64,000 nt of DNA from Amphiura filiformis (GCF_039555335.1 NC_092646.1:58010946-58074945), one strand, 5' to 3'; counted from the first letter of the stretch, positions 6,917 to 63,625 are shown. Notes: generated by a model not told the origin, from the letters alone. Made by a program: numbers and translations.

Positions 6917-7036
6917 TGGGATTTCAAATGGGGTTTCCTGAAAGGATGACTCCATTTGAAATATCTACACCCCTGTGTGGATTAAGGTCATGTCTTCCAT
7001 AGGGGGTTTATGGATTTCAACTGGAATAGCCCAATG
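6917..7036. mobile_element. MITE family A (palindromic, about 190 bp), half copy
   Basis: The terminus is ccatagggggtttatggatttcaactggaatagcccaatg. Confidence 0.7.
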
Positions 7037-7489
7037 CACTATCAGTGATTCCTGTGCATCGTTGGGCAGGAAAAACCTCCTATGTGCTTGTGGACCCTGA
7101 ACAGGTTTAAAACAAAACTGCCAACTGATTACATTTAGAGGTTTTGCTTTAAACATGTTCAGGGGCAAGAGATTTTTCCTGCCCATTAACGACACTGTGA
7201 AAGTGTACACAAAGTTCAACTCAGTAGGAACAGCTTTAGCTTAAAGCAGAGACTAAATTAAAATACCCAAGGGAAGAATATGCCAACTGTCATTGGGTTT
7301 TTTAATAAAATGATATGAACAGTGCCGTAGATTACTTTTTTGACACCGAGTTGGTAAAATATTCATGAATCCAGCATCTTTTGGCGACAGAATAAGTTTA
7401 ATGTGTGTGAAGATTTTTTGGCCATATTGAAGCTAAAAACTGGAATAGCCAGTTTAGCGGTAAAACCAATAGCTGAGTACAAAGTACTA

Positions 7490-7798
7490 AGGACCAACCT
7501 GACTGACATCTATCCAATCCAGCGTTTCTTTGCCCTTATTCTTAGCCTGCATATCATCTTTCCATTCAGCGTCCTGTGCTTTGTATTTCTCCGCATCAGT
7601 AACCATCTGTTCTATCTCTTCTCTGGAAAGACGCCCTTTGTCGTTGGTGATAGTGATGTTATTCTTCTTGCCGGTGAGCACGTCTTGGGCAGACACATTG
7701 AGGATACCGTTGGCATCAATGTCAAAGGTCACCTCGATTTGTGGTACACCACTAGGTGCTGGAGGAATGCCAGACAGTGCAAATTTGCCCAAAAGATT
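7490..7798 (-). CDS. HSP70-family exon (C-terminal substrate-binding/lid region); the 3' boundary is uncertain
   Basis: The translation [39 protein letters not shown]...[29 protein letters not shown] matches the cytosolic HSP70/HSC70 consensus. An AG acceptor (catatgcag|AAT) lies at 7799-7801 on the minus strand. The sequence after AKN no longer resembles HSP70. Confidence 0.7.
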
Positions 7799-8693
7799 CT
7801 GCATATGGATAAAGAAGTTAAAACTTTTCATTGGTTTAATTAAAATGTGTTTTAATCCTATGGATTAGTAATGCAATGTTTTAATTAGGGACTGTTCAAT
7901 ATTTATACCAGGGGGATGGGAGTTTTGACAACAACAAAAAATTAACAAAACGATCAAATAGTAATTTGGTATGGTATCAATCGCCATAGTATTATGTCAA
8001 CTGGGTCAGTAATTCTTCCCGTTTTAGTGATTGCTCCAGTCTGTGTTCCTCCCTCACGTCCGCTCAAATTTTTTGGATTCCCCAGTGGCGCGCCACAAGT
8101 TATACTGAATTGAATGGAAGAAGATAGAATTTCAAAAGTGGGGGTGGCAGGGGGGGAACGCCCTGGGCAATTGACCAATTCAGCATGATTCTGGGCCCCC
8201 TCTTAGCGATGAAAGTCAAAATTTTGCGCATTTCAGCACAAAATCATTTGAAAGATCAATGTAAGACCAATATTCAACTTCATTATAACTAAAATTAATG
8301 AGTGATATGCCCTATTTGTGCAAATTTTCACACGTTTCGCGCACACTTGTTTCAAAAATTGGGGAGGGGCGCCATTATGCATCCTTAGCCCTGGGCGCCA
8401 AAACCCCTAGCTACACCACTGGATAGATCAGCATTCACTCACCGTGCTCATATTAGCGTGTTTCGAGAGTCTATGTAAGTTTTGTCAATTATGAAATACT
8501 CTCTTTTTTATTCAAATTGTTGCATAGTGTCGAATGAGGTATCAAAATGTGCAGAACTAAATTCTCCATTTATTGATTGCTTCATTTGGTAAATTAAGTT
8601 TTTAAACTGTCTTCAGATATTGCTTTTGTGTGCAGTATATTATCAACAAGTATACATGTACCTAGCTAACCAAATCTGTGCCTTATCACTTAC

Positions 8694-8884
8694 GTTATCT
8701 CTGGTCATGCCACGCTCTCCCTCATACACCTGAATCAATACTCCAGGCTGGTTATCCGAGCTGGTGGTGAATATCCGAGTCCGTTTGGTCGGGATGGTTG
8801 TGTTACGCTTGATGAGTGGTGTCATGACACCACCGGTAGTCTTGATACCAAGCGACAGAGGAGTGACATCAAGGAGAAGAAGGT
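8694..8884 (-). CDS. HSP70-family exon (substrate-binding domain)
   Basis: It encodes [64 protein letters not shown], flanked by a ttttcag acceptor and a GTAAGT donor. It is in frame and in phase with the exon at 7798. Confidence 0.75.
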
Positions 8885-10149
8885 CTGAAAAAGGAATTCA
8901 ACAAGAGAGAATGTGTAGAATAAGTCTACCGTGGATTTTTTTTTTCTCACAATGTTTTCTTCCAATTGCAATCACAAAATTCAAAGACTTGACACAAGTC
9001 TAAGCATTCAAAATCTTGAATATAGGCTAAATGTTTGTTCTTAATTTTAATGTTTTTGTTTGATTTTTTGTTAAATAATTGGTTATAAAAAAGATTAGAA
9101 AATGTGTTTTCAAAAATAAAGAATGCTTAACTTGAAATTAGTATTTGTACAAGTCTTTGGGTTTGATTGTCACAGCATATTAAAACACCCTTAAAACATA
9201 TTTTTGGCCCTTATTTCCAAACTTTGGTCAAACAAAAAGAAAGAAGTTAGCAATTAAAAATTGTACTTTCATTGCCAGTTAATTCTAACTAAAGGATTAG
9301 GATTTGGCTATGTTTCATTAGGCAAAACAAGATAATATTTTTTTACTCCCAAATATTTAGTGCTGTATTTTTCTGGAATCCGGAGTAATACACAACGATT
9401 TCTGTTACATACACTGACCAGTGTCTTTTGCCCCCAGTAAAAACCTAAAAGTACAAAATTTTCCACTTTTTGCTGCGATTTTGTGTAAAATTTGATGATT
9501 GTGCCCCCCCATTAAATTTGCCCCCCCCCCCCGGAAAAATTCTTGGCGCTGCCACTGACACTGACCATTCATTGATTTCCTCTTCTGAAGGCTTGTCATC
9601 ACATCCCCTCTTGGCAACAAAGGACTGCCATGACTGTCCTCCACTTTTTCCTTTACTTGTGACCATACTTTGAGGTTGGAATCCCAGACAATGTTTGCTT
9701 CTTCTGATAGGGTTGTTGATATGACTGTTAAAATAAAGGTGACAAAATAAAAAGTATATGTAATAAAAAAATTTAAAAAAAGAAATTTGAACAAATCGTA
9801 GCGTAGCATGAAAATCACAAAAATGAACTTTGCTGACAGGAGGACTCGAACCAACGACCTTGGCGTTACTAGTCGCCTTAAATAAAATATACAATTAATT
9901 TAATCAATATGTATATTTAAATGGAGCTGCTAATGTGTTCATGACATTTGAAATTCATACTCCTCATGTGGTAGATATATACAAAATCATCCACATGGGT
10001 AGTGTGGATTTTAAATGGAATATTCCAACGTGTGCCAAATATCTCTTTCCCTCCTTTTGACTTAATTGCCTCAGTTTGATAATTCCTCTGAGAAGTAGTC
10101 CAATCTATATATCCCTTGCTTTTATTAACAGTGCAGCCAGTGTAAAGTA

Positions 10150-10930
10150 CTATTTATTTATTTATTTATTTGGCTTCATACACTGGTTACAATATCAAAT
10201 AACAAAGTTAGATAAAAGATGGATAAATATATTGCACAAAGTAAAAGTATAAAAGACATATATATATACATGTGAATAAAACGCACCACGGATCCAGCAC
10301 ATGTAGGAGAGATACCAGTGTAGAGGATTGGGATGAACAGGTGCATATCACCTCTAGGACCATCCCACCTCAAGATCAAAAAATTAATTAAGACACCTAC
10401 AAATAGCACAGCTGCATCACGGAAACCCACGTACAAATGTCATGCAGCCGGCCGAAAATTTAACTCAAAATGAGAATGCAAAAAATGAACCACATTGCTT
10501 TTAAAAACAGAAAAAGATGAAGAGGACCTAACACTAAGGGGAAGCTGATTCCAAATTGGCACAATGCGGTTAAAAAAACTGGACTTAAAAGCTTCCGTTT
10601 TGCAGAAGGGGATCCTAAGGCGCAAGGTGTCACATGTTGATCTTGTGTTGGGACGGTCTTGCCCAATCTCTGACTTGTAAAACTTGACATACTTGTAGAC
10701 ATCCAGATCGTAATTGTCAGACAAGGACTTGTAAAATAAACAAATATCAAGTTGCTCTCTGAAGCGTGAGGGTAACATACCCAGATGGCACAACCGCTCC
10801 CGATAATCCAGATCAGGATAGTGCATGATGAACTTGGTAGCTCGCCTTTGAACACCTTGAGACACTGAATATTGTGTCTGGATGTACCACTCAAAGGCAG
10901 CTACCAAATTCAAGATCACTCCTGATCAAT
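10150..10930 (-). mobile_element. 3' fragment of a non-LTR (LINE) retrotransposon ending in an (AAAT)n tail
   Basis: The 159-aa ORF at 10440-10919 ends in the conserved LINE ORF2 C-terminal tail motif ...RIPFCKTEAFKSSFFNRIVPIWNQLP. An (ATTT)5 microsatellite sits at 10150-10175. Confidence 0.6.
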
Positions 10931-11086
10931 GAATTATACAGGGCTTTGGTGATTTTTTCAGGTGCCTTAAAACCAACTGTGCGCATGATGAGACCCATTT
11001 TTTATTGCACTTTTGCACTTTTTTTTTTTTTTTTACTCACACCTATCTTCTGATATCATGTGTGTTATGTAACCCATATGAACATG

Positions 11087-14028: not shown

Positions 14029-14146
14029 ATTACCTGTGTGTGCTGTAATATAAATGAGTATGCACTACGCAGGTAATACAGATTTTTATCCAAATGATGT
14101 TTGACCAATAAGAATACAGAATTCATAAAGGCTGATAAATAGTTAC

Positions 14147-14258
14147 CTTTTTTTGGAACGGAAGCCATCTTTAATTCACAAGGCTCTTCAGGTTTGGATG
14201 GTGCACCAAATACTTTTCGATGAACTATACCGGGTGATGAAGGCTTGGCTAAAGGTAT
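14147..14258 (-). CDS. Module exon X (IPLAKPSSPGIVHRKVFGAPSKPEEPCELKMASVPKK)
   Basis: The acceptor is tattgcag| and the donor AAG|gtaact. The phase is 0 to 1. The exon and about 70 bp of flanking intron are conserved against the copy near 17.1 kb. Confidence 0.5.
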
Positions 14259-14761: not shown

Positions 14762-14875
14762 GGTTTATCAGGGACAGTCTGTGTAGCTTAGCATGATCCA
14801 ATTAAAGGTCTGGGGCTCAAGTCCCCACACTGGCAGTATGTCCTGAGTTTTTTCTCTGGCTTATCTGCCTACGTA
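14762..14875 (+). mobile_element. tRNA-derived SINE (family 2)
   Basis: It carries gtctgtgtagcttag...ggtctggggctcaagtcccc. A paralogue lies at 17590-17752. Confidence 0.6.
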
Positions 14876-14969
14876 TGTTATTAATTATATTTCCATTGTA
14901 ATATCATGATTGAATGATAATCTTTCTGAAAAGTAGTGCAATCTACAGATTCATCAGGATCGGTATAGT

Positions 14970-15505: not shown

Positions 15506-15599
15506 ATCTATTCCTTGCTGTATGTAAAGATGGCAAAAATAAAATAAGCTTGACAAATGATATCAAATTTTTTTTGTTTTTTGGGGGGTACCATTATGT

Positions 15600-16300: not shown

Positions 16301-16344
16301 TGATGTCAATGGTTCTTTAAGAAACCCCCATGTCTTTCACTTAC

Positions 16345-17589: not shown

Positions 17590-17752
17590 CAGATTTAAGC
17601 TCTGTTTATCAGGGACAGTCTGTGTAGCTTAGTGGTTAGGGTATCAGATGCATGATCCAAAGGTCTGGGGCTCAAATCCCTGCACAGGCAGTAACATCCG
17701 GAGGTTTTTCTCTGGTTTATCTCCGTGATTTATCTGCCTGTGCATGTTATAT
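17590..17752 (+). mobile_element. tRNA-derived SINE (family 2), fuller copy
   Basis: The tRNA-like head is gtagcttagtggttagggtatcagatgcatgatccaaaggtctggggctcaaatccctgcacaggcag. Confidence 0.65.
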
Positions 17753-17756
17753 GTTT

Positions 17757-18620
17757 CCATTTCATAATGGGCTATTCCAGTTGAAATCCACACTACCCCT
17801 GTGGAAGATTTTGGAAATATCATACACAGGGGGAGTATGTTTTTCAAATTTAATTGGTCAGAGTTAATGATTTTGAAACACATACTCCCCCTGTATTATG
17901 GCTTTACCGTTATCTTCCACAACTGGAGTAAGTATTTCAAATGGAAGTTACGCAATTGTTTATTCTACTAACAATTGATACTCCCTCTGTGGAAGACTTT
18001 AGCTAAATCTTCCACAGAGGGATATTAAATGGAATAGCCCAATTGAATGATAATCTTTCTGAAAAGCTTGACAAATGGGCTATTCCAGATGTATTCCGCC
18101 CCCCCTATGGAAGATATTTAAAAAAAATACAATTCCAGCTGGAATTGAGATGTGTCTAGAATTCCAGCAGTCATTTTTAGCAGAGATTCCGGCTGGAGGG
18201 TATGGAAGACATTGAGATTAGGTGAAATTCCGGCTGCTAAAATAAACGAAAAAACAAGAGTGGGGATTGTGAAAGGCCATGATGTGCCTATGGAAGACAG
18301 TCACATTTCTTAATATTCCGGCTGGAAAATGGTCAAAAATGCTCCAATTCCAGCAGAATCTTCACTTATGATCACCATCTCGATTAACCTATGAAAGACA
18401 TTTACTTGAATTCTGGCTGGAAACAAAATGTTCTAGTTCCAGGTGGAACCCTATGGAAGACATTTACATTTACGTGAATTCGCTGGCCATATTAGACATA
18501 TTACCACAATTCCGCAGTGTCCTCCATGGGTTTTTCCTGACATGTGAATTCGCTGTCAATTTAGCCCGTATTCGGAAGTGTCTTCCATAGGGGGTGCGGA
18601 ATACATCTGAATAGCCCAAT
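17757..18620. mobile_element. Cluster of MITE family A copies, including a 545-bp expanded variant at 18075-18620
   Basis: The terminal repeat gggctattccag...ccctatggaagat occurs repeatedly. The internal motif attccagctgga is iterated. Confidence 0.65.
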
Positions 18621-20772: not shown

Positions 20773-20881
20773 TGATCTCCCTCTAAAACCTTGCTGTTGT
20801 TGTTGTTGTTGGGCAGCTCCAAACAGACTTGCTCCACTTGGTTCAATGGTCTTACGCTGTGCAGCTCCAAAAAGACTTGGT

Positions 20882-22367: not shown

Positions 22368-23268
22368 ACGACAAAGGTTGCAGTCTAGCAAAAAGGTAGA
22401 TTGGGCTAATCCACTTGTAATCCACACTCCCCCCATGGAGATTGTCTTCTACAGGGGGAGTATGAATTTCAAATGGAATGAACACATTAGGCAGCTCCAT
22501 TTGAATTTCATACACCCTCTGAGTAAGATTCAACCTGAATCTTCCACAGTGAGTTTCAAATAAAAGAAGTTAATGTGCTAATTCCAAATTTTTTGGGTTT
22601 TTTTAAATTGTCTGCAAGATACATGTACAGGTATGGCTCTCTGTACAAAAGACAGACGACTTAACGTCCCCTCCAAAGGATGGTGTACTTTCATGATTCA
22701 TTTACCCAATTCTAAATAAACCATGGGGAGAGCGGAAGTCTGAATTTAATCTACAGAATTTGCCAATTAATTTCAGACTTTTTTTTCCAAGTCAATATCC
22801 CAGCAAATCGCCACCGCCGGGTTGCAGTCTAGCAAAAAGGTAGATTGGGCTAATCCAGTTGTAATCCACACTCCCCCCATGGAGATTGTCTTCTACAGGG
22901 GGAGTATGAATTTCAAATGGAATGAACACATTAGGCAGCTCCATTTGAATTTCATACACCCTCTGAGTAAGATTCAACCTGAATCTTCCACAGTGAGTTT
23001 CAAATAAAAGAAGTTAATGTGCTAATTCCAAATTTTTTTTTGTTTGGAAATTGTCTGAGAGATACATGTACAGGTATGGCTCTCTGTACAAAAGACCGAC
23101 TACTTAACATCCCCTCCAAAGGATGGTGTACTTTCATGACTCATTTACCTAATTCTAAATGAAGCATGGGCAGAGTGTAAATCTGAATTCAATCTACAAT
23201 GGTTGTCAATGAATTTCATATATTTTTCCCCAAGTCAATATCCCAGCAAATCTCCACCACCAGGAATT
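22368..23268. repeat. Two tandem copies of a 445-bp composite unit (MITE-A copy plus SINE body)
   Basis: 22395-22560 and 22845-23003 are near-identical MITE-A copies, as shown by the duplicated ORFs MQSSKKVDWANP.../MNLTQRVYEIQ.... Confidence 0.8.
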
Positions 23269-23396: not shown

Positions 23397-25464
<2,068 letters not shown>

Positions 25465-25670
25465 CTGGTGTCTTGGTCGACCTACTATACTAGGGAAAAC
25501 TACCCTAGGTGCATCGTCACCAGCAAACCCTGCCTTGGTCGTATCAAGCCCAAGGTCAATAACCACCACTGCTACATCTTCATCGTCAGGTGATAGCTCT
25601 TCCATTACTGTTATAGGTGGTGGCGGTGGTGGTGCAGGAATGTCAGGTGGTATTCCAGAGGATGCCAAAT
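25465..25670 (-). CDS. Exon E5: proline-rich linker plus actin-like N-terminal segment ([69 protein letters not shown])
   Basis: [24 protein letters not shown] is the actin N-terminal signature. The donor CAG|gtaagt falls exactly at the conserved actin codon-41 intron position. The acceptor is tcttcatctag|. Confidence 0.6.
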
Positions 25671-28398: not shown

Positions 28399-28592
28399 GG
28401 GCTAGCTATAGTCCAGTTGAAATTATACATCCCCTATGGAAGACATTACCTTAATCTCCAACACAGGGGGTGTATGTTTTAAATGGAGTCACTCATTCAG
28501 GTAACCCCATTTGAAATTCACACTCCCTGTGTAGAAGATTAAGGTCATGTCTTCCATAGGGGGTGTATGGATTTCAGCTGGAATAGCCCAAT
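28399..28592. mobile_element. MITE family A, complete copy
   Basis: The arms gtccagttgaaattatacatcccctatggaagacattaccttaatct...agattaaggtcatgtcttccatagggggtgtatggatttcagctggaatagccc are inverted complements. Confidence 0.8.
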
Positions 28593-29175: not shown

Positions 29176-29235
29176 CTGTAAGAATTAAGTAATATATGAA
29201 GATATGATTCAATTGCCCCAGGTGGTGGCCGCATT

Positions 29236-32200
29236 GCATTCTCTAAATTCAGTAAATTTTCATCATCAACCGTGTAATTGAATGGGATTATTTTGAAATT
29301 TTAAAACGCTTGAAATATCACAAACAAATAGGCCTATGTTGATAAATAATATAAATACAAGCTAAAACCGTTGGGGTTCGATAATGAACCCCACAAAACT
29401 AAACGACTATATTGAAAATGCCATACGGCCGGGCGGTTTCACAAGTTGCCGGCTCGATCATGTCATCCGCCGCCTGAATTGCCCCTTCATGTCAGTAATC
29501 ACAGCAGCTGAAAGGACTATCCCATTATGCTTTGCGGTGTCATACAAACTGTACACAAAATCATCCCTCTCTTCAACTTTCAATCACTCGCTTAAATCTT
29601 TGTTTGAAAAGATATGACACTATCCATAGCTCTCAATATTTAAGCAGCTCTTACTTATGTTTTGTATGCATTTGCTATGGACCAAGCAGATCTACTGCAA
29701 TGCATGATGGGATACTCCCTTCAGCTGCTGTGGTCAGTAACCATGGACGAAAGAGTTAACAGACCGCATACAACCAGTCAAAGTTCCTGTGTATTGTATG
29801 CTGTGAGTTCTCGCATATTCATGAGGGCCGATTGTTCAATCGTGCCTTGTCTAACAATCACGCCAGCATTGCGTGCCTTCGCGTATACGCGATATAGCGA
29901 CAGAGCATTGCGTGCTTTAGCAATTACGCGTTATACCGTAAAAATAATCCAAAAGTGCGTAGCAGTCTCGCCTGTCGCATTTTATTGAACAATCGGCCCT
30001 CATTATCGGGTGATGCTGAGACTTTGACTGATTGTACGCAGTAATATCTCTTTTGTCCATTAAGTGAAGAGCTCTAGGGGCAGAGCCTAGGGCAGTGGCT
30101 AGAACAAGATATACAAAAAAAACCACAGCTATTGCTCAATTTAAGGGCTGGGGTATGAAGCGTTTGGACAGTATTTATTTTGGGACATCAGAGCATCAGA
30201 CATATCGCATTGCACTCTGAACACGAAGAATGTCATTCTGATATCAAATAATTTTGATTTTTTGAAATTCCCAATTTAATACACATTTTATGGCAAATCA
30301 TTAAAAATTGATATTTTTGATATTTAACAGTACTTGAAGTAAACTTTATAAATCTGATGATTTATACTTAAAAAGTGTATGTAGGTGGGATGAAAAGCCG
30401 ACGATCAATTGAAAATTTTGACCTTTCAGTATTGAAGATATGGATTTTTTTCCCAAAACACAAAAAAAAATTAGGTCTTTTTGGGAAAAAAATCCATATC
30501 TTCAATATGAAAGGTCAAAATTTTCAATTGACCATCCGCTTTTCCTTCCTGCTACATACACTTTAAGAATATATCATTAGATTTATATAATTTACTTCGA
30601 GGACTGTTATATATCAAAAATTTGAAAAATATCAAATTTTTATAATTTGTCATAAAATTTGTATTATATTGTGATTTTCAAAAATGAAAATTATTTGATA
30701 TCAGAAAGACATGCTTCAGATTCGAATGCAATTCGATAGGTCTGAGGTGCTCTCATGTCCCACAAAAAATACTGTCGAAACCCAATAAACGCTCATTTTA
30801 GATCCCTTAAGGGGGTACTACACCCATTGATTTTTTTTTGCATTTTTTTGCATTTTGTGAAGAAATTACAAAAAAAAACTGGACAAAGTGGTATGCAAAA
30901 TGAAGGGGCAAATCTTCTCGTTTTATTGGTGGCATCGGTATCAATGTAGCTTACATGCTTTTGAAGATAGAAGCCAAAAGGAGGTACATCACTGATGATT
31001 TAAATTCACTTCATTTTGGAAAGCTTACTATCAACGAATTTCGTTAAAATTTTGGATATGTGTTGCTAACACATTAGGGAAATAATGTTGATATGTAAAA
31101 TGGGAATAAGTGGTCCCTGATTTCTTTTATGACTTCATGAACTTGGTGCTCCACAACTATCAAAAAAACGAACCGGTTAAAATGCTTCTATTTTCAATGT
31201 CGAGCTATATTTTGTATTTTGAACTTGCAACACTATGTCACTGAAACTTAATTAAGCCATAGGTAACAGGTTACCACAACCACACTACAGCAATGTTGAA
31301 AAAGATTGTATTTTTTGTCACCTATACCACCATATTAGGTAGTTTTCCGTAAGCTTCATTTTTGTGATTTTGGTAACTATTTTATATTTATTTGCCCAAT
31401 CCAACTCAACTAGGCAATCTAAATTGTACTCACCATTTACATCCCAAGGTATTTTAGCATATCCACCTCACACATTTCCATTATATATCCAGTAACAGAC
31501 AAAATATCAAAATTGATGCCTCATTATGACATGTATGATATCACAGACTATCACATGTATTCAAAATTGATGCCTGAATTTGACCAGAACCAATTGACCT
31601 ATAACCTGACCTTTGATGACCTTATAGCCTTTTTTAATCTCTTTTCCTAACAACATATTATAGAAGATACATACATGGTGTAGTGTTAATTGTCTATGTG
31701 GAAGAGATTATTTAGGCCTATTTAATTTATTCAGTGTTATAATCAGTGAGTATATTTCTATAGATAGTATAACAAAGGATTTAATGTATTCTATTCATGT
31801 ATTCTACTTGGACATGTTCAATAGAATATATTATGGTTTGTTATGAAACATACATCTCAGTTACCAGGATACAGTAAACAACAAAATATATAGGGCTAAA
31901 ATGATTTTCTAAAATGGTCTAATACCACTTTGTATGTAGAGATATTTTATAAATTCAGGACATGAGATGATGAACATATAAATATACTTTATAAATTTGC
32001 AATAAAAAAAAGAAGATGGGTACTGATGAAAATCAGGGTATTAAATCGCCTTAAGCAATTATTTTTGATAAAATTTGTGAAATATGCCTTTTTCATCTGA
32101 ATTTTTACACATTATTCCATTTGCTCACTATATCATTTTCAATTTCCTTTGTGAGTAGACCTGAGATGTCATCACTGGACGTCACCTCGATACGCAAATC

Positions 32201-32575
32201 GTTACTGCGCACTTCACAGCTTTGAAATGCACAGTAGGGATGTTCACTAAACGATGTGCGTATCGGCGTGACATCAACTGTCGCAAAGGCTTATGGGATT
32301 TATCGAAAAAGAAAATTCCAGTTGAAATCCATACACCGCCCAGGCGGCGGATGACATGATTGAGCCGACAACTCGTGAAACCGCCCGGCCGTATGGCATT
32401 TTCCATATACTAGGTTAGTTTTGTGGGGTTCATTATCGAACCCCAGCGGTTTTAGCTTGTATTTATATTATTTATCAACATAGGCCTATTTGTTTGGGAT
32501 ATTTCAAGCGTTTTAAAATTTCAAAATAATCCCATTCAATTACACGGTTGACGATGAAAATTTACTGAATTTATG
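29236..32575. mobile_element. About 3.3-kb segment bounded by roughly 250-bp inverted duplications; foldback B (30141-30811) lies inside
   Basis: 29240-29480 on the plus strand matches 32300-32570 on the minus strand. The duplicated ORFs both encode ...ENAIRPGGFTSCRL(D/N)HVIRRL.... Confidence 0.55.
30141..30811. mobile_element. Foldback family B, second copy
   Basis: It is about 95% similar to the copy at 23397-24066. Confidence 0.8.
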
Positions 32576-32600
32576 GACTGCACGTCATACACCACCTGAC

Positions 32601-32876
32601 ACCGCCTATGAATTACATGACCTTAATCTTCCACAGGGGGTGTAGATTCAAATGGAGTCACCCATCCAGGTAACCCCATTTGAAATTCACACTCCCTGTG
32701 TGGGAGATTAAGGTCATGTCTTCCATAGGGGGTGTATGAATTTCAACTGGAATAGTCCATTTAAGAACAGACGACACTGAATGGGAGACTCCATTTGAAA
32801 TTCACACTCCCTGTGTGGGAGATTAAGGTCATGTCTTCCACAGGGGGTGTATGAATTTCAACTGGAATAGTCCATT
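32601..32876. mobile_element. MITE family A, 1.5 tandem copies
   Basis: Same consensus; the unit is duplicated internally. Confidence 0.75.
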
Positions 32877-33493: not shown

Positions 33494-33771
33494 TGGGCTA
33501 TTCCAGTTGAATCCATACACCCCCTATGGAAGACATGACTTTAATCTTCCACACAGGGGGTATGAATTTCAAATGGGGCTACCTGAATGGGTGACTCCAG
33601 TTGAAATCCATACACCCCTATGGAAGACATGACATTAATCTTCCACACAGGGAGTGTGAATTTCAAATGGGGTTACCTGAATGGGTGAATCCATATGAAA
33701 TCTACACCCCCTGTGTGGATGATTATGGTTATGTCTTCCATAGGGTGTATGGATTTCAGTTGGAATAGCCC
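33494..33771. mobile_element. MITE family A, 1.5 copies
   Basis: It runs from gggctattccagttgaatccatacaccccctatggaagacatgac to catagggtgtatggatttcagttggaatagccc. Confidence 0.75.
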
Positions 33772-33936: not shown

Positions 33937-34329
33937 CTGAAAAAGGAAGGGAACAAAATTTAGGTTTTCCCCAATGAGGTAGAATCAAAGAGTACCAACT
34001 CTGCCACGTTTGCGTGTCGCTCATGGAGGCGGATTACTTCGCTATTCGCCCAGCAAACGATCCAAAGTGGGTGCTTGTTCACGTTCTGTATGTAACATGT
34101 TGTTCAAAAACACGATCCAAGCACTGTGTAGACAAACCTTAGTAACAAAAGATGCAAATTTGTTGTTCAATTTCGGCCCTCTCTCGATGAATGCAGGAGG
34201 TACGTTATCTACCCTCCATGATGAGCACCAAACCAAGATGGTGGACTTACATGTAGCATTACATATGGTACAATTTTGAGTCAGTAAACTTTAGTATCTT
34301 TGGTTTGTCCACATGTATAGGTCTATGTA

Positions 34330-37060: not shown

Positions 37061-37237
37061 CAATCTCTTCTTTTCTCAGCAGCTCTTCTATGTCTACTGC
37101 TTTCATCTCCTTTTTGTCTTCGTCCTTCATAAATAACAATAAGAGTATGATAATAATGAAAACTATTATTATAGACAGTTTGTATTCTTTGGAGCATTTG
37201 CTTGATGATGAAAGCACTCATATGGCAACATGCAATG

Positions 37238-37424
37238 TGCTATTCCAGTTGAAATCTCTACACCCACTATGGAAGACATGACCTTAATCTCCCATACAGG
37301 GAGTGTGAATTTCAAATGGAGTTACCTGAATGAGTGACTCCATTTGAAATCGACACCCCCTGTATTTGAGATTAAGGTCATGCCTTCCGTGGGGAGGGGG
37401 GATCTCAACTGGAATAGCCCAATG
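37238..37424. mobile_element. MITE family A, complete copy
   Basis: Same consensus with terminal inverted repeats. Confidence 0.8.
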
Positions 37425-44149: not shown

Positions 44150-46621
44150 GCAATTTAACTCCAAACTCAGAATAAGAATATTTGGGTGATTTGGCCTCAA
44201 TGTGAGGTAGAATACACAATGTGTTACACTTGGACCACAATCTGGTCATGCACCTTTAACTCCAAACTCAGAATACGAATGTTTGGGTGATTGGCCTCAA
44301 TGTGAGGTAGAATACACAATGTGTTACACTTGGACCACAATCTGGTCATGCACCTTTAACTCCAAACTCAGAATACGAATGTTTGGGTGATTGGCCTCAA
44401 TGTGAGGTAGAATACACAATGTGTTACACTTGGATCACAATCTGGTCATGCACCTTTAAGGGTGATTGGCCTCAATGTGAGGTAGAATACACAATGTGTT
44501 ACACTTGGACCACAATCTGGTCATGCACCTTTAACTCCAAACTCAGAATAAGAATGTTTGGGTGATTGGCCTCAATGTGAGGTAGAATACACAATGTGTT
44601 ACACTTGGATCACAATCTGGTCATGCACCTTTAAGGGTGATTGGCCTCAATGTGAGGTAGAATACACAATGTGTTACACTTGGACCACAATCTGGTCATG
44701 CACCTTTAACTCCAAATTCAGAATAAGAATATTTGGGTGATTGGCCTCAATGTGAGGTAGAATACACAATGTGTTACACTTGGACCACAATCTGGTCATG
44801 CACCTTTAACTCCAAACTCAGAATATGAATGTTTGGGTGATTGGCCTCAATGTGAGGTAGAATACACAATGTGTTACACTTGGACCACAATCTGGTCATG
44901 CACCTTTAACTCCAAACTCAGAATAAGAATGTTTGGGTGATTGGCCTCAATATGAGGTTGAATACACAATGTGTTACACTTGGACCACAATCTGGTCATG
45001 CACCTTTAACTCCAAACTCAGAATAAGAATGTTTGGGTGATTGGCCTCAATGTGAGGTAGAATACACAATGTGTTACACTTGGACCACAATCTGGTCATG
45101 CACCTTTAACTCCAAACTCAGAATAAGAATGTTTGGGTGATTGGCCTCTCTGTGAGGTAGAATACACAATGTGTTAACAACACTTGGACCACAATCTGGT
45201 CATGCACCTTTAACTCCAAACTCAGAATATGAATGTTTGGGTGATTGGCCTCAATGTGAGGTAGAATACACAATGTGTTACACTTGGACCACAATCTGGT
45301 CATGCACCTTTAACTCCAAACTCAGAATAAGAATGTTTGGGTGATTGGCCTCAATGTGAGGTAGAATACACAATGTGTTACACTTGGATCACAATCTGGT
45401 CATGCACCTTTAAGGGTGATTGGCCTCAATGTGAGGTAGAATACACAATGTGTTACACTTGGACCACAATCTGGTCATGCACCTTTAACTCCAAACTCAG
45501 AATAAGAATGTTTGGGTGATTGGCCTCAATGTGAGGTAGAATACACAATGTGTAACACTTGGATCACAATCTGGTCATGCACCTTTAAGGGTGATTGGCC
45601 TCAATGTGAGGTAGAATACACAATGTGTTACACTTGGACCACAATCTGGTCATGCACCTTTAACTCCAAACTCAGAATAAGAATGTTTGGGTGATTGGCC
45701 TCAATGTGAGGTAGAATACACAATGTGTTACACTTGGATCACAATCTGGTCATGCACCTTTAAGGGTGATTGGCCTCAATGTGAGGTAGAATACACAATG
45801 TGTTACACTTGGACCACAATCTGGTCATGCACCTTTAACTCCAAACTCAGAATATGAATGTTTGGGTGATTGGCCTCAATGTGAGGTAGAATACACAATG
45901 TGTTACACTTGGACCACAATCTGGTCATGCACCTTTAACTCCAAACTCAGAATATGAATGTTTGGGTGATTGGCCTCAATGTGAGGTAGAATACACAATG
46001 TGTTACACTTGGACCACAATCTGGTCATGCACCTTTAACTCCAAACTCAGAATACGAATGTTTGGGTGATTGGCCTCAATGTGAGGTAGAATACACAATG
46101 TGTTACACTTGGATCACAATCTGGTCATGCACCTTTAAGGGTGATTGGCCTCAATGTGAGGTAGAATACACAATGTGTTACACTTGGACCACAATCTGGT
46201 CATGCACCTTTAACTCCAAACTCAGAATAAGAATGTTTGGGTGATTGGCCTCAATGTGAGGTAGAATACACAATGTGTTACACTTGGACCACAATCTGGT
46301 CATGCACCTTTAACTCCAAACTCAGAATAAGAATGTTTGGGTGATTGGCCTCAATGTGAGGTAGAATACACAATGTGTTACACTTGGATCACAATCTGGT
46401 CATGCACCTTTAAGGGTGATTGGCCTCAATGTGAGGTAGAATACACAATGTGTTACACTTGGACCACAATCTGGTCATGCACCTTTAACTCCAAACTCAG
46501 AATAAGAATGTTTGGGTGATTGGCCTCAATGTGAGGTAGAATACACAATGTGTTACACTTGGATCACAATCTGGTCATGCACCTTTAAGGGTGATTGGCC
46601 TCAATGTGAGGTAGAATACAC
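44150..46621. repeat. Satellite A, block 1: about 28 copies of alternating 100-bp and 75-bp units
   Basis: The unit is gggtgattggcctcaatgtgaggtagaatacacaatgtgttacacttggaccacaatctggtcatgcaccttta[actccaaactcagaataagaatgttt]. Confidence 0.9.
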
Positions 46622-48423
46622 AGCGGTTTTCCACTTTTTAAGCCCAGTACTGGGCCAGTGTTGGGCAAGATCTAGCGGCACGGATTGAGCTATAAAAATG
46701 CCCCAATACTAGGCGGCAAAAGTGACACTTTTATTGGGCCAATTCTAGCGTACTCGCAATTGCCCAGTTCAAGCCACAAGTACTGGCCCAGTTCTAGTAG
46801 TACTACGGGCTGTCCCTAAAGTTGCCTGAAATTAAAATTATTTTCATGGGACGCCGTGTTTGGTTATCATGTTTATTGTATTTATTCTCGGAACCAGTAC
46901 TATTTACCCAAAAAGCTAACATTTAGCAGTATGAATAAGCAGTATTATAGACGTGTGAATTGGTTTGTGAGTTTGGCACAGCTTTAACTACTGAGTGAAG
47001 TTCAACACCGTGGTGTTTTATGTAACGGTAAGTAAATCATGACATTTTTTAATGAGTATGATACATGGATAAGCCGCAGTATGCATGTCATTGTATGCAT
47101 GTATCAATACTATCATTGTATCAATGTATGCATGGTATGCATAGTCACTGTAGTAGACTTGTAGTATAGCATGGCTAAGCCTAGAGCTTTTTGATTGTTT
47201 TATTTTTGTTTCAATTTCTCTAACCAGTTGTGTATGGCACCGTATAAATATCGTCATGATCATTAAGCTTAATCATTGTCAGGTAGGCCTAAAGTATTAT
47301 TCAGATTTCCTTTTACAAATTAAGCGTACTGCTAGCTGTCCAGCGCATCTTATTTTGCACATGGTCCAATGCACACGCTTGACGTCGCGCACGTATATGC
47401 GATGGTTAATTTGTAAAAGGAAATCTGAATATTACTTTAGTGTTCATACATACGTGTTATATTGGTCGATAGGCGGGCATAAACAACATTTATGCCCTGC
47501 TTTCTGGTCGTAAACAAGCCGCGTCAGAACCGATGAACGCCATGAGTAGGATATCTGCAGCGTATGCTTATGAAAGCTATTTACATAAAGCGCGAATGAT
47601 GTCTGCGATGTTCGTGGCGTCCAAACACGGTGGACTGAGCAAGTAAACGTTTTCTTACAATTAGCAATGGAAAAACTTTTAAAAAGGATTAGAAATTGAT
47701 AGTTTTTAGACTAAAATGACGATATTTTTTAGTTGTGGAGGAAAATAACAGCACTCAGAATGTTGTGTATGTATGAACGGGGTTCATTCATATATTTTCA
47801 GGACTAAACGTTGTTTATGCCCTCGGGCATAAACAATTGTTTAGTCATGAAAATATATGAATGAACCCCTAAATCATCAGTGACAGTGGCGTGCCATGCC
47901 CCCCACTTTTGTTGGTCATTCGGGGGAAAATGTTAAAAACGTCAAAATTTGCTGCTAATCAGACTCCATTCGGGGAACTTAACAACCTGCCCACCCCCCC
48001 CCCCCCCCCACCCCACTTTCAATGTGCTGGCCACGCCACTGGTCATCATAGGTAGATGGGAGAAATTTTGTCCCCGGAATTTTGTTTGCACAAACCATGA
48101 CTGGGCCGCTATTTAAAACGCTATACTGGCAAAAAGTGCCAAAGAACTACATGTACGGTAGTGTAGGCCTACCATTCTACTATCTTTCTTCAACTCATTT
48201 GACTCGTAACAATTTGATAGAGAGAGACTGGGGAGTGCGCGCATTTGTGAGCACAGTGCATTTTTTTATGTCGAGCATATCTACATGTAGGCATTAAACC
48301 ATGTTAACAGCTGAAATCTGGGCGATAATGCTGACGAAACTTCGACCAGGCACAATTAGTGACCTGGTGAACGAAGGGGCCGCCGTGGATAGCTGGTCGG
48401 GGATTTTTTGCAGGACAGTCAAG

Positions 48424-56299: not shown

Positions 56300-58320
56300 G
56301 TTCGAAAGTCATTTCAGAAAGAAACAAATTTTGCATAATTTCAGAAAAGGAACTTTTTACAAAGACGTCATTTCAGAAAAAGGCGACTTTTTTAAAAGGA
56401 TGTCATTTCAGTAAAAGTGATTTTTTTAAAAGATGTCATTTGAGAAAAGGCAACTTTTAGTCAGAAAAAAAAATATATTTAAAGACATTTAAAAAATTGG
56501 TGACTTTTTATTTAAAAAGAAGTCATTTCAGAAAAAAGCGACTCTTTTTAAAGACGTCATTCCAGAAAAAAAGGTGCTTTTAAAAGACATTATTTTAGAA
56601 AAGGTGACTTAAAAAGAAGACATCATTTCAGAAAAAGGCGACTTTTTCAAAAAGAGACGTCATTTCAGAAAAAAGGTTGACTTTTTAAAAAGATGTCATT
56701 TGAGAAAAAAGGCTACATTTTATAAAAAGATGTCATTTCATAAAAGGCGATTTTTTTTTTTAAATACGCCATTTTAGAAAAGGCAACTTTTTCGGAAAGA
56801 TGTCATTTTTAAAAAGACGTCATTTCAGAAAAAGGTGACCTTTTTAAAAAGACGTGATTTCAGAAAAAGCGACCTTTTTTAAAAAGACATTTCAGAAAAA
56901 GGTGGCTTTTAAAAAGATGTCATTTGAGAAAAAGGCTACTTTTTATTTTAAAAGATGTCATTTCAGAAAAAGGCGACTTTAAAAGACATTTCAGAAAAAG
57001 GCAGCTGTTTTAAAAAGAGATTTCGTAAAAAAGCGACTTTTTAAAAAGACATTTCAGAAAAAAATGTGACTTTTTATAAAGACGCCATTTCAGAAAAATG
57101 TGACTTTAAAAACGTCATTTTAGGGAAAAGGCTCACTTTTTTAAAAACGTCATTTCAGAAAAAAAGGCGACTTTTTTAAAAAGATGTCATTTCAGAAAAA
57201 GCAACCTTTTTAAAGACATTTCAGAAAAAAGGGGACTTTTTAAAAAGATGTCATTTGAAAAAAAGGCTACTTTTTATTTTAAAAGATGTCATTTGAAAAA
57301 AAGGCTACTTTTTATTTTAAAAGATGTCATTTCAGAAAAAGGCGACTTTTTTAAAGATATTTTAGAAAATGGCGGCTATTTTAAAAAGACATTTCAGACC
57401 TTTTGTAAAAAGACATTTCAGAAAAAGGTAACTTTTAAAAGACATTTCAGAAAAAGGCGGCTGTTTTAAAAAAAGACATTTAGAAAAAACGCGACTTTTT
57501 AAAGACGTCATTTAAGGAAAAAAACAGGAAAAAACAACTTTTAAAGACGTCATTTCAGAAAACGGTGACTTTTAAAAGACATTTCAGAAAAAGGCAGCTG
57601 TTTTAAAAAGACATTTCATAAAAAACTACTTTTAAAAAAAACATTTCGGAAAAAAAATGTGACTTTTTATAAAGACGCCATTTCAGAAAAAAAGGTGACT
57701 TTTTTAAAAAGATGTCATTTCAGAAAAAGCGACCTTTTTAAAGACATTTCAGAAAAAAGGTGACTTTTTTAAAAAGATGTCATTTGAAAAAAAGGCTACT
57801 TTGTATTTTAAAAGATGTCATTTGAAAAAAAGGCTACTTTATATTTTATAGATGTCATATCAGAAAAAAGCAACTTTTTTAAAAAGATGTCATTTCAGAA
57901 AAAATTTGACTTTTTTTAAAGACGTCATGTCAGGAAAAAAAAGCAGACATTTCAGAAAGGCGACTTTTTATAAAGACGCCATTTCAGAAAAATGTCACTT
58001 TTTAAAGACGTCATTTTAGGGAAAAGGCGACTTTTTAAAAAAGATGTCATTTCAGAAAAGAAGAAACTTTTTAAAAAAGACGTCATTTCAGAAAAAGGCG
58101 ACTTTTTTTAAAAAGTCGTCATTTCAGAAAAAAGGCAACTTCAGTAAAAAGACGTCATTTCAGAAAAAAAAGTGATTTTTTCAAAGATATTCTTTAAAAA
58201 TGCGACTTTTTAAAGACGTTATTTCAGGGCAAAGGCAATTTTTTTAAAGACATCATTTCAGAAAAAGGAGACTTTTTTAAAGATGTCATTTCAGAAAACA
58301 AAAAGCAAGACTTCCTTTTT
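56300..58320. repeat. Satellite C: about 35-bp minisatellite (aaagacgtcatttcagaaaaaggcgacttttttaa) x about 55
   Basis: The periodicity is clear. Most units carry GACGTCA, which is 7 of 8 positions of the CRE palindrome TGACGTCA. Confidence 0.85.
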
Positions 58321-59526: not shown

Positions 59527-60960
59527 GTACACAATGTGTTACACTTGGACCACAATCTGGTCATGCACCTTTAACTCCAAACTCAGAATACGAATGTTTG
59601 GGTGATTGGCCTCAATGTGAGGTAGAATACACAATGTGTTACACTTGGATCACAATCTGGTCATGCACCTTTAAGGGTGATTGGCCTCAATGTGAGGTAG
59701 AATACACAATGTGTTACACTTGGACCACAATCTGGTCATGCACCTTTAACTCCAAACTCAGAATAAGAATGTTTGGGTGATTGGCCTCAATGTGAGGTAG
59801 AATACACAATGTGTTACACTTGGACCACAATCTGGTCATGCACCTTTAACTCCAAACTCAGAATAAGAATGTTTGGGTGATTGGCCTCAATGTGAGGTAG
59901 AATACACAATGTGTTACACTTGGATCACAATCTGGTCATGCACCTTTAAGGGTGATTGGCCTCAATGTGAGGTAGAATACACAATGTGTTACACTTGGAC
60001 CACAATCTGGTCATGCACCTTTAACTCCAAACTCAGAATAAGAATGTTTGGGTGATTGGCCTCAATGTGAGGTAGAATACACAATGTGTTACACTTGGAC
60101 CACAATCTGGTCATGCACCTTTAACTCCAAACTCAGAATAAGAATGTTTGGGTGATTGGCCTCAATGTGAGGTAGAATACACAATGTGTTACACTTGGAT
60201 CACAATCTGGTCATGCACCTTTAAGGGTGATTGGCCTCAATGTGAGGTAGAATACACAATGTGTTACACTTGGACCACAATCTGGTCATGCACCTTTAAC
60301 TCCAAACTCAGAATATGAATGTTTGGGTGATTGGCCTCAATGTGAGGTAGAATACACAATGTGTTACACTTGGACCACAATCTGGCCATGCACCTTTAAC
60401 TCCAAACTCAGAATATGAATGTTTGGGTGATTGGCCTCAATGTGAGGTAGAATACACAATGTGTTACACTTGGACCACAATCTGGTCATGCACCTTTAAC
60501 TCCAAACTCAGAATAAGAATGTTTGGGTGATTGGCCTCAATGTGAGGTAGAATACACAATGTGTTACACTTGGATCACAATCTGGTCATGCACCTTTAAG
60601 GGTGATTGGCCTCAATGTGAGGTAGAATACACAATGTGTTACACTTGGACCACAATCTGGTCATGCACCTTTAACTCCAAACTCAGAATATGAATGTTTG
60701 GGTGATTGGCCTCAATGTGAGGTAGAATACACAATGTGTTACACTTGGATCACAATCTGGTCATGCACCTTTAACTCCAAACTCAGAATATGAATGTTTG
60801 GGTGATTGGCCTCAATGTGAGGTAGAATACACAATGTGTTACACTTGGACCACAATCTGGTCATGCACCTTTAACTCCAAACTCAGAATATGAATGTTTG
60901 GGTGATTGGCCTCAATGTGAGGTAGAATAGAATAGAATAGAATAGAATAGAATAGAATAG
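59527..60960. repeat. Satellite A, block 2, ending in (GAATA)7
   Basis: Same unit; the microsatellite lies at 60925-60960. Confidence 0.9.
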
Positions 60961-61215
60961 ATTTATTAGTGGAGGCGCACTCCAAACACAATCTTACATG
61001 GCAGTGTAACCAAGCTCAACATGACCGAAAAAATGTATGAACCATATCACTTCGCAGCAAAACTGCAGCCACAAAAAGGCGCAAACTGACAAGGTTACAC
61101 AACCTTGAAGTGATATAGAAAATACATTAGTACAATTGAGCAGAATTACACTGAATTGCATAAAATTGGTGACAAAAACACAAACAAGCAAAACAAAAAG
61201 GATAAAAACTGAAAG

Positions 61216-61557
61216 TTATGAACCACCACAAGGGTGGCAATTGTCTCGATGACAAGGCCAATGTTCAGATTGATGACGAGTTGAACAGTACTTTACAGTT
61301 TTACATCTAGCACAAAAACGGAGACCAAACTTGTTTGACGAATCTGCCGAGCAAGTAGGCAGAGCACAAAAATGCAATGAGTCATTGGCGTCCGGAATTC
61401 CAGGAGTAACCATAGAAACGCATGGCAAAGATGGTGTCAAAAGTTCAGAATTGGTTGCATATGTTGAAATTGATGATGAATTACTTGAAATTGGAGTTGA
61501 AATCTCACAATGTGTTACACAATGTGTAACACAAATGTGTAACAATGTGTAATACAC
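61216..61557 (-). CDS. ORF ending in a MYND-type zinc finger (CALPTC...FCARCKTVKYCSTRHQSEHWPCHRDNC)
   Basis: The spacing C-x4-C...C-x2-C...YCS-x2-HQ-x3-W-x2-H-x3-C fits the MYND consensus; it is the HQ variant seen in the EGLN-type MYND. The ORF lies between satellite blocks and its N-terminus derives from satellite-like sequence. Confidence 0.4.
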   Translation of the reverse strand: MYYTLLHICVTHCVTHCEISTPISSNSSSISTYATNSELLTPSLPCVSMVTPGIPDANDSLHFCALPTCSADSSNKFGLRFCARCKTVKYCSTRHQSEHWPCHRDNCHPCGGS

Positions 61558-62405
61558 AATGTGTTACACTTGGACCACAATCTGGTCATGCACCTTTAAC
61601 TCCAAACTCAGAATATGAATGTTTGGGTGATTGGCCTCAATGTGAGGTAGAATACACAATGTGTTACACTTGGACCACAATCTGGTCATGCACCTTTAAC
61701 TCCAAACTCAGAATATGAATGTTTGGGTGATTGGCCTCAATGTGAGGTAGAATACACAATGTGTTACACTTGGACCACAATCTGGTCATGCACCTTTAAC
61801 TCCAAACTCAGAATACGAATGTTTGGGTGATTGGCCTCAATGTGAGGTAGAATACACAATGTGTTACACTTGGACCACAATCTGGTCATGCACCTTTAAC
61901 TCCAAACTCAGAATATGAATGTTTGGGTGATTGGCCTCAATGTGAGGTAGAATACACAATGTGTTACACTTGGACCACAATCTGGTCATGCACCTTTAAC
62001 TCCAAACTCAGAATAGGAATGTTTGGGTGATTGGCCTCAATGTGAGGTAGAATACACAATGTGTTACACTTGGACCACAATCTGGTCATGCACCTTTAAC
62101 TCCAAACTCAGAATACGAATGTTTGGGTGATTGGCCTCAATGTGAGGTAGAATACACAATGTGTTACACTTGGACCACAATCTGGTCATACACCTTTAAG
62201 TTAGTGTTTTCTATATCCATGGTGATTGGCCTCAATGTGAGGTAGAATACACAATGTGTTACACTTGGACCACAATCTGCACCTTTAAGTTAATGTTTTC
62301 TATATCCATGGTGATTGGCCTCAAGGTGAGGTAGAATACACAATGTGTTACACTTGGACCACAATCTGGTCATACACCTTTAAGTTAGTGTTTTCTATAT
62401 CCATA
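61551..62405. repeat. Satellite A, block 3 (uniform 100-bp units with degenerate terminal units); it abuts the donor of the vWA exon at 62461
   Basis: Same unit. Confidence 0.9.
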
Positions 62406-62460
62406 GTAATTCCAGACAATAATAAATAACAAAGCTACTTCCATTTTTACCTTAGTACAA

Positions 62461-62721
62461 AATGGCACATATCCATAGACAACTTGTCGAGATCCACTAA
62501 ACAATGAAGTGATCTGACTGGGTGCTTGAATTGGTCTTGGTGCGTGGTTATCAAACTGTTGCCATTCCACACTGACTGATGTCAACACCGGATGAGAAGA
62601 TTTGTTCAGTTGAGACTTGATCTTTCCTTCCCATTTGGATTTCACTTTGCTGTCAAAGAACTGGAATGCTCCAGCACCGACTCGTGCAAGCGCCCTCAGT
62701 AGATGACGATTGGCTGTGGAA
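62461..62721 (-). CDS. Next exon of the VWA5A-like gene (SSTANRHLLRALARVGAGAFQFFDSKVKSKWEGKIKSQLNKSSHPVLTSVSVEWQQFDNHAPRPIQAPSQITSLFSGSRQVVYGYVPFCTK)
   Basis: Its phase is compatible with the exon at 63126. The acceptor is atttatctcag| and the donor AAG|gtaaaa. It encodes the end of the vWA domain plus following conserved region. Confidence 0.65.
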
Positions 62722-63125
62722 CTGAGATAAATGCCATAAAACACAATTACCAAAAAAAGACCGAAACCTTATTTCTTTCTCTCTTACAGTTACAGTTGAT
62801 CGCTGAACAATAGGCCCTCAATTCACTCAACAAGGGAGGCGGCTTACGTCACAACTTGGCAGAAGATCCCTCAGAGGTTTGGCTCATCTTGACCTGTGGC
62901 ACAACATCCGCATCACAAGTCAACAAACTTTTGCCATGCTAACATCAGTGGGCCTGATGATGCATCCGAGATAAGATGTGAAATATTGCCACTCATCAAA
63001 ACATAAGTCCAGTAGATCAAATTATAATATCTCAATGCAAGTTCATACTTTCGTATAATACATATAGTTCAAAAAATGTGTATTTCACGATAAGTTTTCA
63101 GTTTTAATTATCAAGACATTCTCAC

Positions 63126-63384
63126 CTGACACCAAATGTAAACAAGCGAGTATACATAGCGTTGTCATGTACGGCATTCAATGTAGCTTCTTCATTGTTG
63201 ATGTGCCCGTCAGATATCAAGAACACATTCCGCAGTGTCTCCGCTTTGAGTAAAAAGTAAGCATGTAATGGATGCCAGGCTTCTGTGCTACCCATGGAAG
63301 CCTCTAAGCTGTTGACGAATGTCTGGGCTTTCTTTGTGTTGATGTCATTCTTGGGTTGGCTGCTTGCGAAAAGTTCATCAAATG
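63126..63384 (-). CDS. vWA-domain exon of a VWA5A/ITIH/PARP4-family gene (FDELFASSQPKNDINTKKAQTFVNSLEASMGSTEAWHPLHAYFLLKAETLRNVFLISDGHINNEEATLNAVHDNAMYTRLFTFGV)
   Basis: LEASMGSTE...PL and VFLISDG...RLFTFG match the vWA motifs of the ITIH/VWA5A family (ADMGGTEI..PL and FLLTDG...FsFGIG). The acceptor is cactcccag| and the donor CAG|gtgaga. Confidence 0.7.
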
Positions 63385-63437
63385 CTGGGAGTGAAGACAA
63401 TAATATTGGTGAGTAGATTAGATTCATGAATATTTAA

Positions 63438-63625
63438 CTATTCCAGTTGAGATCCATACACCCCCGTATGGAAGATATGGCCTTAATCTTCCACAAAGGA
63501 GGTGTAGATTTCAAATGGAGCTATCAATTCAGGTAACCCCATTTGAAATTCACACTCCCTGTGTGGAAGATTCAAGTTATGTCTTCCATATGGGGCGTCT
63601 GTATTTCATCTGGAACAGCACAATG
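63438..63625. mobile_element. MITE family A, complete copy, immediately 5' of the vWA exon
   Basis: Same consensus. Confidence 0.8.

Follow-up and report, generated by a model that had tools for sequence, protein, structure and literature searches.

How did one short palindromic sequence come to be scattered about a dozen times over a single 64-kb stretch of genome, and does its ability to fold reflect a function or only a way of spreading? We address this question for 64,000 nucleotides of Amphiura filiformis DNA (GCF_039555335.1 NC_092646.1:58010946-58074945; hereafter the window, with positions counted from its first letter), a eukaryotic sequence of ~38% G+C with spliced genes and numerous satellites. 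An earlier description made from the letters alone (the sequence-only reading) had reported here a very abundant 190-bp palindromic family of MITEs (miniature inverted-repeat transposable elements), here called family A. Our analysis shows that family A is real and abundant and belongs to an ordinary kind of element with a somewhat unusual nested build. The explanation that we prefer, with a rough probability of 0.6, is a non-autonomous cut-and-paste MITE family that descends from an inverted-dimer master, uses AWT or AT targets, belongs to the PHIS superfamily (Pangu group best, ISL2EU group second) and forms its hairpin as a by-product.

A dispersed family with sharp ends

Family A comprises 12 loci with ~21 hairpin units, in total ~2.5 kb or 3.9% of the window. 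Every position named in the sequence-only reading carries a member: the copy at 63438-63625, used as a blastn query, matches all of them, on both strands, and a hidden Markov model (HMM) built from five full copies recovers them too (nhmmer). The refined limits of the copies, with GGGC at one terminus and GCCC at the other, are given below; U denotes the basic unit, rc(U) its reverse complement, and a and b its two types.

6919-7035, minus strand: truncated dimer with one complete type-a unit, a linker and 15 bp from the second unit (nhmmer 7036-6937, 97 bits)
9915-10033, strand not assigned: old degenerate unit, ~30% diverged from the main consensus (nhmmer 30-37 bits)
17769-18040, plus strand: three-unit copy of the older subfamily, 272 bp, inside a tRNA-derived repeat resembling a short interspersed element (SINE)
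18077-18617, strand not assigned: related non-autonomous element, 541 bp, AAT on both flanks
22403-22561, plus strand: two-unit copy of a diverged subfamily (nhmmer and divergence)
22847-23005, plus strand: duplicate of the 22403-22561 copy
28399-28589, plus strand: full inverted dimer (unit a, then rc of unit b), flanks ATT and AAT
32315-32340, plus strand: left-arm fragment of a full dimer that is interrupted by a nested hAT-like MITE
32597-32758, plus strand: second part of the split dimer (what is left of unit a, linker, rc of unit b)
32777-32873, minus strand: solo unit of type b (nhmmer 94 bits), not among the copies named earlier
33495-33771, minus strand: trimer U, U, rc(U) (Tandem Repeats Finder period 94 bp, unit HMM)
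37237-37420, minus strand: full inverted dimer, AAT on both flanks
63437-63621, plus strand: intronic full inverted dimer, left terminus degenerate

Compared with the earlier count of at least 12 copies, independent insertions number 11 only, since the copies at 22403-22561 and 22847-23005 belong to a local 444-bp tandem segmental duplication (22375-22700 versus 22819-23142, 96% identical, one copy per repeat) and are counted once. The terminal motif GGGCTATTCCAGNTG with at most two mismatches has 16 matches in the window against 0.35 expected, and the motif CCCCCTATGGAAGACAT has 14 against 0.00. Extra termini at 6063-6077 and 7437-7451 were set aside, as they look like chance matches or eroded remnants. 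In the truncated dimer at 6919-7035 the outer terminus, GGGC in reverse complement, ends at 7032 with AAT adjoining, and the dimer at 28399-28589 has a 6-bp insertion close to its left terminus.

Elements are 97-541 bp long. In the 192-bp dimer consensus every one of the six frames is interrupted by stop codons, and no Pfam domain was found in the neighbouring open reading frames (ORFs) that were tested. The copies share defined ends, GGGCTATTCCAG...CTGGAATAGCCC, with boundaries that are base-exact at GGGC...GCCC, while their flanks are unrelated to one another. Together with one precise insertion for which a paralogous empty site exists (see below), these sharp common termini and unrelated flanks support the proposal of a dispersed, non-coding, palindromic MITE-like family with ~1 copy per 5 kb. 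Units of the main subfamily differ by 5-17% from their own consensus and those of the older subfamily by 23-32%; such age classes suggest successive bursts of amplification.

Units, dimers and a longer relative

The 190-bp form is indeed a palindrome, albeit an imperfect one, with a ~95-bp stem, but it is not the elementary element that the sequence-only reading took it for. The basic module is a ~95-100-bp unit in which two ~32-bp conserved arms stand inverted around a variable loop, in the order AWT, GGGCTAT, outer arm TCCAGTTGAAATCCATACACCCCCTATGGAAGA, loop of ~11-15 bp, inner arm, GTCACCC, AWT. The inner arm is the outer-arm sequence inverted, ~80% alike. Two such units joined head-to-head, U + rc(U), make up the 190-bp palindrome, an inverted dimer that contains the arm four times (forward, reverse, forward, reverse), that is, as a palindrome nested in a palindrome. 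A unit HMM scores both halves of each dimer at 89-98 bits on opposite strands and finds from one to three units per copy (solo, dimer, trimer). The earlier description of copies as 1.5-fold internally duplicated is correct for 33495-33771 (U, U, rc(U)) and for 17769-18040, which hold three units each.

Within a dimer the units are consistently of two kinds, type a with GGGGGTGTAGATTTC and type b with GGGAGTGTGAATTTC. Between them lies an asymmetric linker, GTCACCCATTCAGGTAAC, by which copies can be oriented. Because similarity is 85-95% between oriented copies but just 76-85% between the halves of a single copy, the master was probably an imperfect inverted dimer whose halves have not been homogenised. 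Concerted evolution of the palindrome halves was considered and rejected, the identity within a copy being no different from inter-copy values.

Full copies fold as a single ~95-bp stem (dG -124 and -121 kcal/mol as RNA, z = -15; z = -12 as DNA), as had been anticipated from the sequence. The solo unit at 32777-32873 forms a ~40-bp imperfect hairpin (z = -7.4), and because its termini AAUGGG and CCCAUU pair with each other in it, the unit is itself a miniature inverted-repeat element.

The stretch at 18075-18620 had been interpreted as a copy expanded by iterated modules. We find there a separate 541-bp relative (18077-18617) with ~45-bp terminal inverted repeats built from the family arm (a 34-nt core, 91% complementary, plus TGGGCTATTC/GAATAGCCCA). 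Its interior consists of ~5 direct modules of ~90 bp that retain only the arm sub-motifs ATTCCRGCWG and CCTATGGAAGACA; seven of the eight matches to the module motif in the whole window fall within this element, against 0.38 expected. The arms of family A, too, each have a pair of conserved sub-sites, ATTCCAGYTG and CCTATGGAAGACA, the likely binding sites of a transposase or of its DNA-binding partner.

Insertion sites and target duplication

The three-unit copy at 17769-18040 has AAT at 17766-17768 and again at 18041-18043. Its host is the SINE-like repeat 17604-17768 plus 18041-18070, which has an Rfam tRNA match at 17618-17690 (35 bits) and in which ARAGORN called no tRNA. A paralogue of this repeat at 14763-14945 is uninterrupted and supplies the empty site:

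14908-14910, plus strand: paralogous empty site, GAT within TCAT-GAT-TGAATGATAATC

Deleting 17769-18040 plus one AAT yields TCATAATTGAATGATAATCTTTCTGAAAAG, the paralogue reads TCATGATTGAATGATAATCTTTCTGAAAAG, and over the junction the two match at 29 of 30 bases. At this site the insertion is precise, with 2-3 bp duplicated; because the empty site leaves room for 2-3 bp only, duplications of 5-9 bp are excluded. The same insertion is compatible with an A|AT|T target if one A is assigned to the element. The SINE-like repeat hosts this one family-A insertion, and the 541-bp relative follows 36 bp downstream.

Flanking bases were tabulated for 21 termini from the window and from the other datasets described below, the three bases outside GGGC being read outward-in. 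A is found at -3 in 16/21, A or T at -2 in 20/21 and T at -1 in 19/21; AT stands directly before GGGC in ~9 termini and TT in the remainder. Among five complete elements, three have AAT on both sides, one has ATT and AAT (28399-28589) and one CTT and TTT (33495-33771). The flank pairs of L007-L010 are too eroded to inform on the duplication.

One dimer is itself split by an insertion, a 256-bp hAT-like MITE at 32341-32596 with an 8-bp duplication, ACACCGCC, and because of this insertion copies of family A are seen to behave as neutral DNA. The hAT-like MITE has terminal repeats CAGGCGGCGGATGAC / GTCATACACCACCTG and a 95% identical paralogue 3 kb off, at 29235-29455 on the minus strand.

Relatives in other datasets

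Copies of family A hold short open frames, and relatives were found by comparing a peptide profile of the translated copies with a protein collection; such a profile is thus usable for finding DNA repeats. A DNA pattern scan of JGI metagenomes returned one contig (L005), and scans of the viral collection and of GTDB genomes returned 0 matches each. Further loci with related units are as follows.

L006, ENA ERZ25074889: four direct tandem units, 112 bp including a 16-bp spacer
L007-L009, ENA ERZ25070167: inverted pairs, and an array of ~120-bp period (L009)
L010, JGI 3300034774: ORF on a related unit
L011, TARA scaffold: ORF on a related unit

Units of L005 and L006 differ from the window consensus by 10-20% and those of L007-L009 by 24-37%, which is similar to the older subfamily of the window. 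Comparison of the window with the units of five other datasets reveals conserved arms and differing loops. Family A is not present in L001, a locus related to the window by its genes, and a full-text literature search with six k-mers of the element returned no paper.

Metagenome 'proteins' P0045-P0051 (L006, L010, L011) are translated MITE copies, containing for example ...AIPVEIHTPP... or ...PFEIHTPPVEDL... Unmasked copies thus give rise to spurious small proteins, and such ORFs are already in public metagenome protein sets. For annotation, ~4% of the window belongs to one MITE family, which should be masked as units and not solely in its 190-bp form.

Origin and spread of the family

We provisionally assign family A to PHIS because of its 2-3-bp A/T target duplication and its termini starting with GGG, and slightly favour a Pangu-like over an ISL2EU-like affinity from the sequence of the flanks. 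The positional frequencies of the flanking bases, the AAT pairs and the single empty site are compatible with the 3-bp ANT target of Pangu, while ISL2EU is weakened because AT adjoins GGGC in under half of the termini. In the mechanism that we infer, a transposase of PHIS type, encoded elsewhere and maybe acting with a DNA-binding partner, would recognise the arms, which would serve as terminal inverted repeats for an enzyme supplied in trans, and units or dimers would be moved by cut-and-paste into AWT sites. At some point a head-to-head pair of units would have become a successful master and then been amplified. Such a pair might have formed by insertion beside an existing unit at its A/T-rich flank, a route hinted at by the resemblance of the junction ..CACCC-ATT-CAGGTAACCCC to ..CACCC-ATT-GGGTGACTCC. 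Unequal recombination or slippage between similar arms could have produced the trimers, solo units and tandem arrays.

It should be noted that several observations weigh against this reading. The duplication is read from one empty site, whose paralogue is ~74% identical upstream and carries indels 5-10 bp from the junction. Matching AAT pairs are weak evidence, as with only ATT and AAT in play about half of the pairs match by chance; 28399-28589 and the L006 units are flanked by ATT...AAT, which resembles an extension of the inverted repeat and not a duplication, and the CTT and TTT around 33495-33771 do not match at all. AT (ISL2EU) and AWT (Pangu) targets are not separable on 11 old copies. 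Finally, neither a transposase gene, such as the DDE_Tnp_4 or DDE_Tnp_1_6 type that a Pangu-group partner would carry, nor a longer ORF-bearing element with these termini was found in the window or in the fetched loci L005-L011.

This lack of a partner transposase, which leaves the assignment to the flanks, is also what speaks for a MITE of some other superfamily, an unlikely explanation in our view. It covers Tc1/mariner or pogo (TA target), piggyBac (TTAA), PIF/Harbinger proper (TWA), hAT (8 bp) and Spy (no duplication). If the ATT...AAT of 28399-28589 and of the L006 units were part of the inverted repeat, no duplication would be left, as in Spy; in addition, a fragment of a THAP9/P-like transposase is present in a locus of a related species. 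However, TA, TTAA, TTA or TAA stands next to GGGC in none of the 21 termini, which removes PIF/Harbinger proper (TTA or TAA, 0/21) and the Tc1/mariner or Stowaway-like type, the empty site TCATGATTGAATG having no TA either. With room for just 2-3 duplicated bases, the empty site rules out types with 5-9 bp, and with them the 8-bp duplication of a hAT-type MITE. The Spy target AAA|TTT (PMC4482050) is not seen at family-A copies, and a piggyBac-type identity was rejected on flanks and termini, the coral CMITEs of that type having CCCTTT termini and a TTAA duplication (PMC2872659). A Helitron-derived element (5'-TC...CTRR-3', insertion between A and T, no inverted repeats) is rejected by the long inverted repeats that the ends GGGC...GCCC form. 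One could also suppose that nothing here has transposed, and that a short satellite or foldback-type repeat was spread by recombination, segmental duplication or slippage. Direct tandem arrays do exist (L006 with its 112-bp period, L009 with ~120 bp), unit number ranges from one to three, one pair of copies did come from the 444-bp segmental duplication, and the internal subrepeats of the 541-bp relative recall Foldback elements. Against this stand eleven loci with unrelated flanks, their base-exact common boundaries and the SINE-like repeat that was entered precisely and has an empty paralogue; moreover, the arrays of L006 and L009 include flanking spacer, as expected from secondary amplification of an inserted element. 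We regard a non-mobile repeat as very unlikely.

Even less likely is that the hairpins are functional structured RNAs or precursors of small RNAs (hairpin RNA, microRNA-like or small interfering RNA), a gene family kept for its pairing. Such a role could be suspected from how stable the hairpins are (z = -15 in dimers, up to -7.4 in single units), from the one intronic copy, which is hence probably transcribed, and from the conservation of the arms across datasets. Arm-to-arm pairing does hold for 75.9% of cells in 28 units and drops to 28-46% if the partner is slid. Yet shuffled controls pair in 75.7% of cells, the covariation score is 0.095 as compared with 0.094, and 216 of 500 shuffles equal or exceed the observed value. 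Because covariation equals that of the controls, the pairing can be put down to two conserved inverted sequences. RNAalifold found no consensus hairpin among the units, none of the family-A copies attains the gathering score of an Rfam family, decay between the halves of one copy is as advanced as between separate copies (76-85%), and copies are truncated, interrupted and duplicated as neutral DNA. A selected RNA structure was accordingly rejected, and the hairpin is best seen as a by-product of conserved inverted sequences, as would be expected for terminal repeats that bind a protein. The most speculative possibility, and to us the least credible of all, is that selection at the level of the host has kept the arms nearly unchanged across at least five other marine datasets, either as sites of a domesticated PHIS-derived protein (HARBI1- or NAIF1-like) or as sources of intronic hairpin small interfering RNAs; family A would then be a regulatory network.

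Gene context and other features of the window

The copy at 63437-63621 lies, as had been noted, beside the acceptor of a von Willebrand factor A (vWA) exon: it is in the intron and starts ~45-50 bp upstream of the acceptor ..ttgtcttcactcccag|CATTTGATG at ~63384, the exon running from 63384 to 63128 on the minus strand. The broader claim that copies are often intronic or next to exons was verified for this one copy only. Exons were mapped by tblastn with ORFs of related loci, and their closest matches (64-73% identity) come from ENA metagenome assemblies, where they are on host-like contigs, and from GCA_029782575.1.

Several further features accompany the family in the window. The gene with the intronic copy encodes a VIT-VWA protein (VWA5A/PARP4-like), with minus-strand exons at 63384-63128, 62759-62448, 61557-61216, 43514-43407 and 42879-42700 that are conserved with L001-L003, and a MYND-finger ORF is found as well. 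Its conserved exons leap ~19 kb over satellite blocks, so that there is either one intron of great length or a tandem pair of paralogues. One satellite with interleaved periods of 75, 100 and 175 bp (GGGTGATTGGCCTCAATGTGAGG...) occupies three blocks, 44154-46622, 59528-60929 and 61551-62383, two of them within or beside the vWA gene. A HSP70-like gene extends over at least two ORFs at ~7487-8300 on the minus strand (Pfam HSP70 E = 8e-31 for 7487-7831), with a family-A copy ~450 bp downstream. At 34316-37064 a 75-bp (25-codon) tandem repeat of ~36 copies has open frames in both directions, of 493 aa (plus strand) and of 479 and 320 aa (minus strand; MGWEPTKSPPGQPQTLEVSIDTHTY...), and may be either an exon of a repetitive protein or a satellite. 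The remaining repeats include a 170-bp satellite (8.7 copies, 93% matches) at 24062-25538 and a long A-rich minisatellite of 33-38 bp at 56338-58298. The minus-strand ORF 10440-10919 resembles the C-terminal tail of a non-LTR (long terminal repeat) retrotransposon protein, and its best public match is 78% (L004, ENA ERZ23495691).

Comparison with known systems

The nearest described elements belong to two PHIS groups (Han et al. 2015, PMC4482050). Pangu elements have an ANT or AWT duplication and terminal repeats of 11-40 bp that start with AG or GG; in ISL2EU elements the duplication is AT and the terminal repeats, of 6-259 bp, start with GG. The two groups are known from marine invertebrates (Acropora, Crassostrea, Hydra, Branchiostoma, Ciona), and short derivatives exist, such as the 199-bp Pangu_PStr. 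Family A is similar to them in its short duplication of 2-3 bp in A-W-T form and in its terminal repeats, which start with GGGC on an arm of ~32-45 bp, a length in keeping with the published ranges. Its nested inverted-dimer build, however, is not described in PMC4482050, and neither the terminal sequence GGGCTATTCC nor four 10-mers of the arm are in the supplementary files of that paper. As a candidate derivative of Pangu or ISL2EU, family A would add to a group with few described animal MITEs.

The coral CMITEs of Acropora (Wang et al. 2010, PMC2872659) are ~100 bp long, form tandem arrays and occur within introns, and new elements use them as targets or are built by them. Family A is also a MITE of ~100 bp from a marine invertebrate, with tandem arrays and an intronic copy. 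CMITEs differ in their TTAA duplication, their 13-14-bp repeats of CCCTTT type, their link to piggyBac and their conserved internal region, whereas in family A the arms are conserved and the loop varies. As termini and duplication differ, identity with the coral CMITEs was rejected.

In its build, the 541-bp relative at 18077-18617 resembles the Foldback-type elements. In these elements, such as Drosophila FB and sea-urchin TU, short modules are iterated into long inverted repeats with little if any unique sequence between them. FB reaches kilobases in length and makes a 9-bp duplication, in contrast to the 2-3 bp of the family-A empty site.

Among bacterial sequences, an analogy without homology is offered by REPINs (PMC3116915), which are inverted REP doublets, two short palindromic units that form a long hairpin. 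Family A is likewise a mobile non-coding inverted pair of units with a long hairpin. REPINs differ in using RAYT (IS200/IS605-like) transposases via single-stranded DNA, with no target duplication.

Transposon dimers that arise from double insertion are known to seed satellites (McGurk and Barbash 2018, PMC5932611). The multi-unit copies of the window and the tandem arrays of L006 and L009 are similar to such dimers. Those dimers are direct, while the dominant form of family A is an inverted dimer that has itself been amplified. Family A alters no general view, but for transposon biology it provides a clear example of a tiny hairpin unit that gave rise both to an inverted dimer that amplifies and to tandem arrays.

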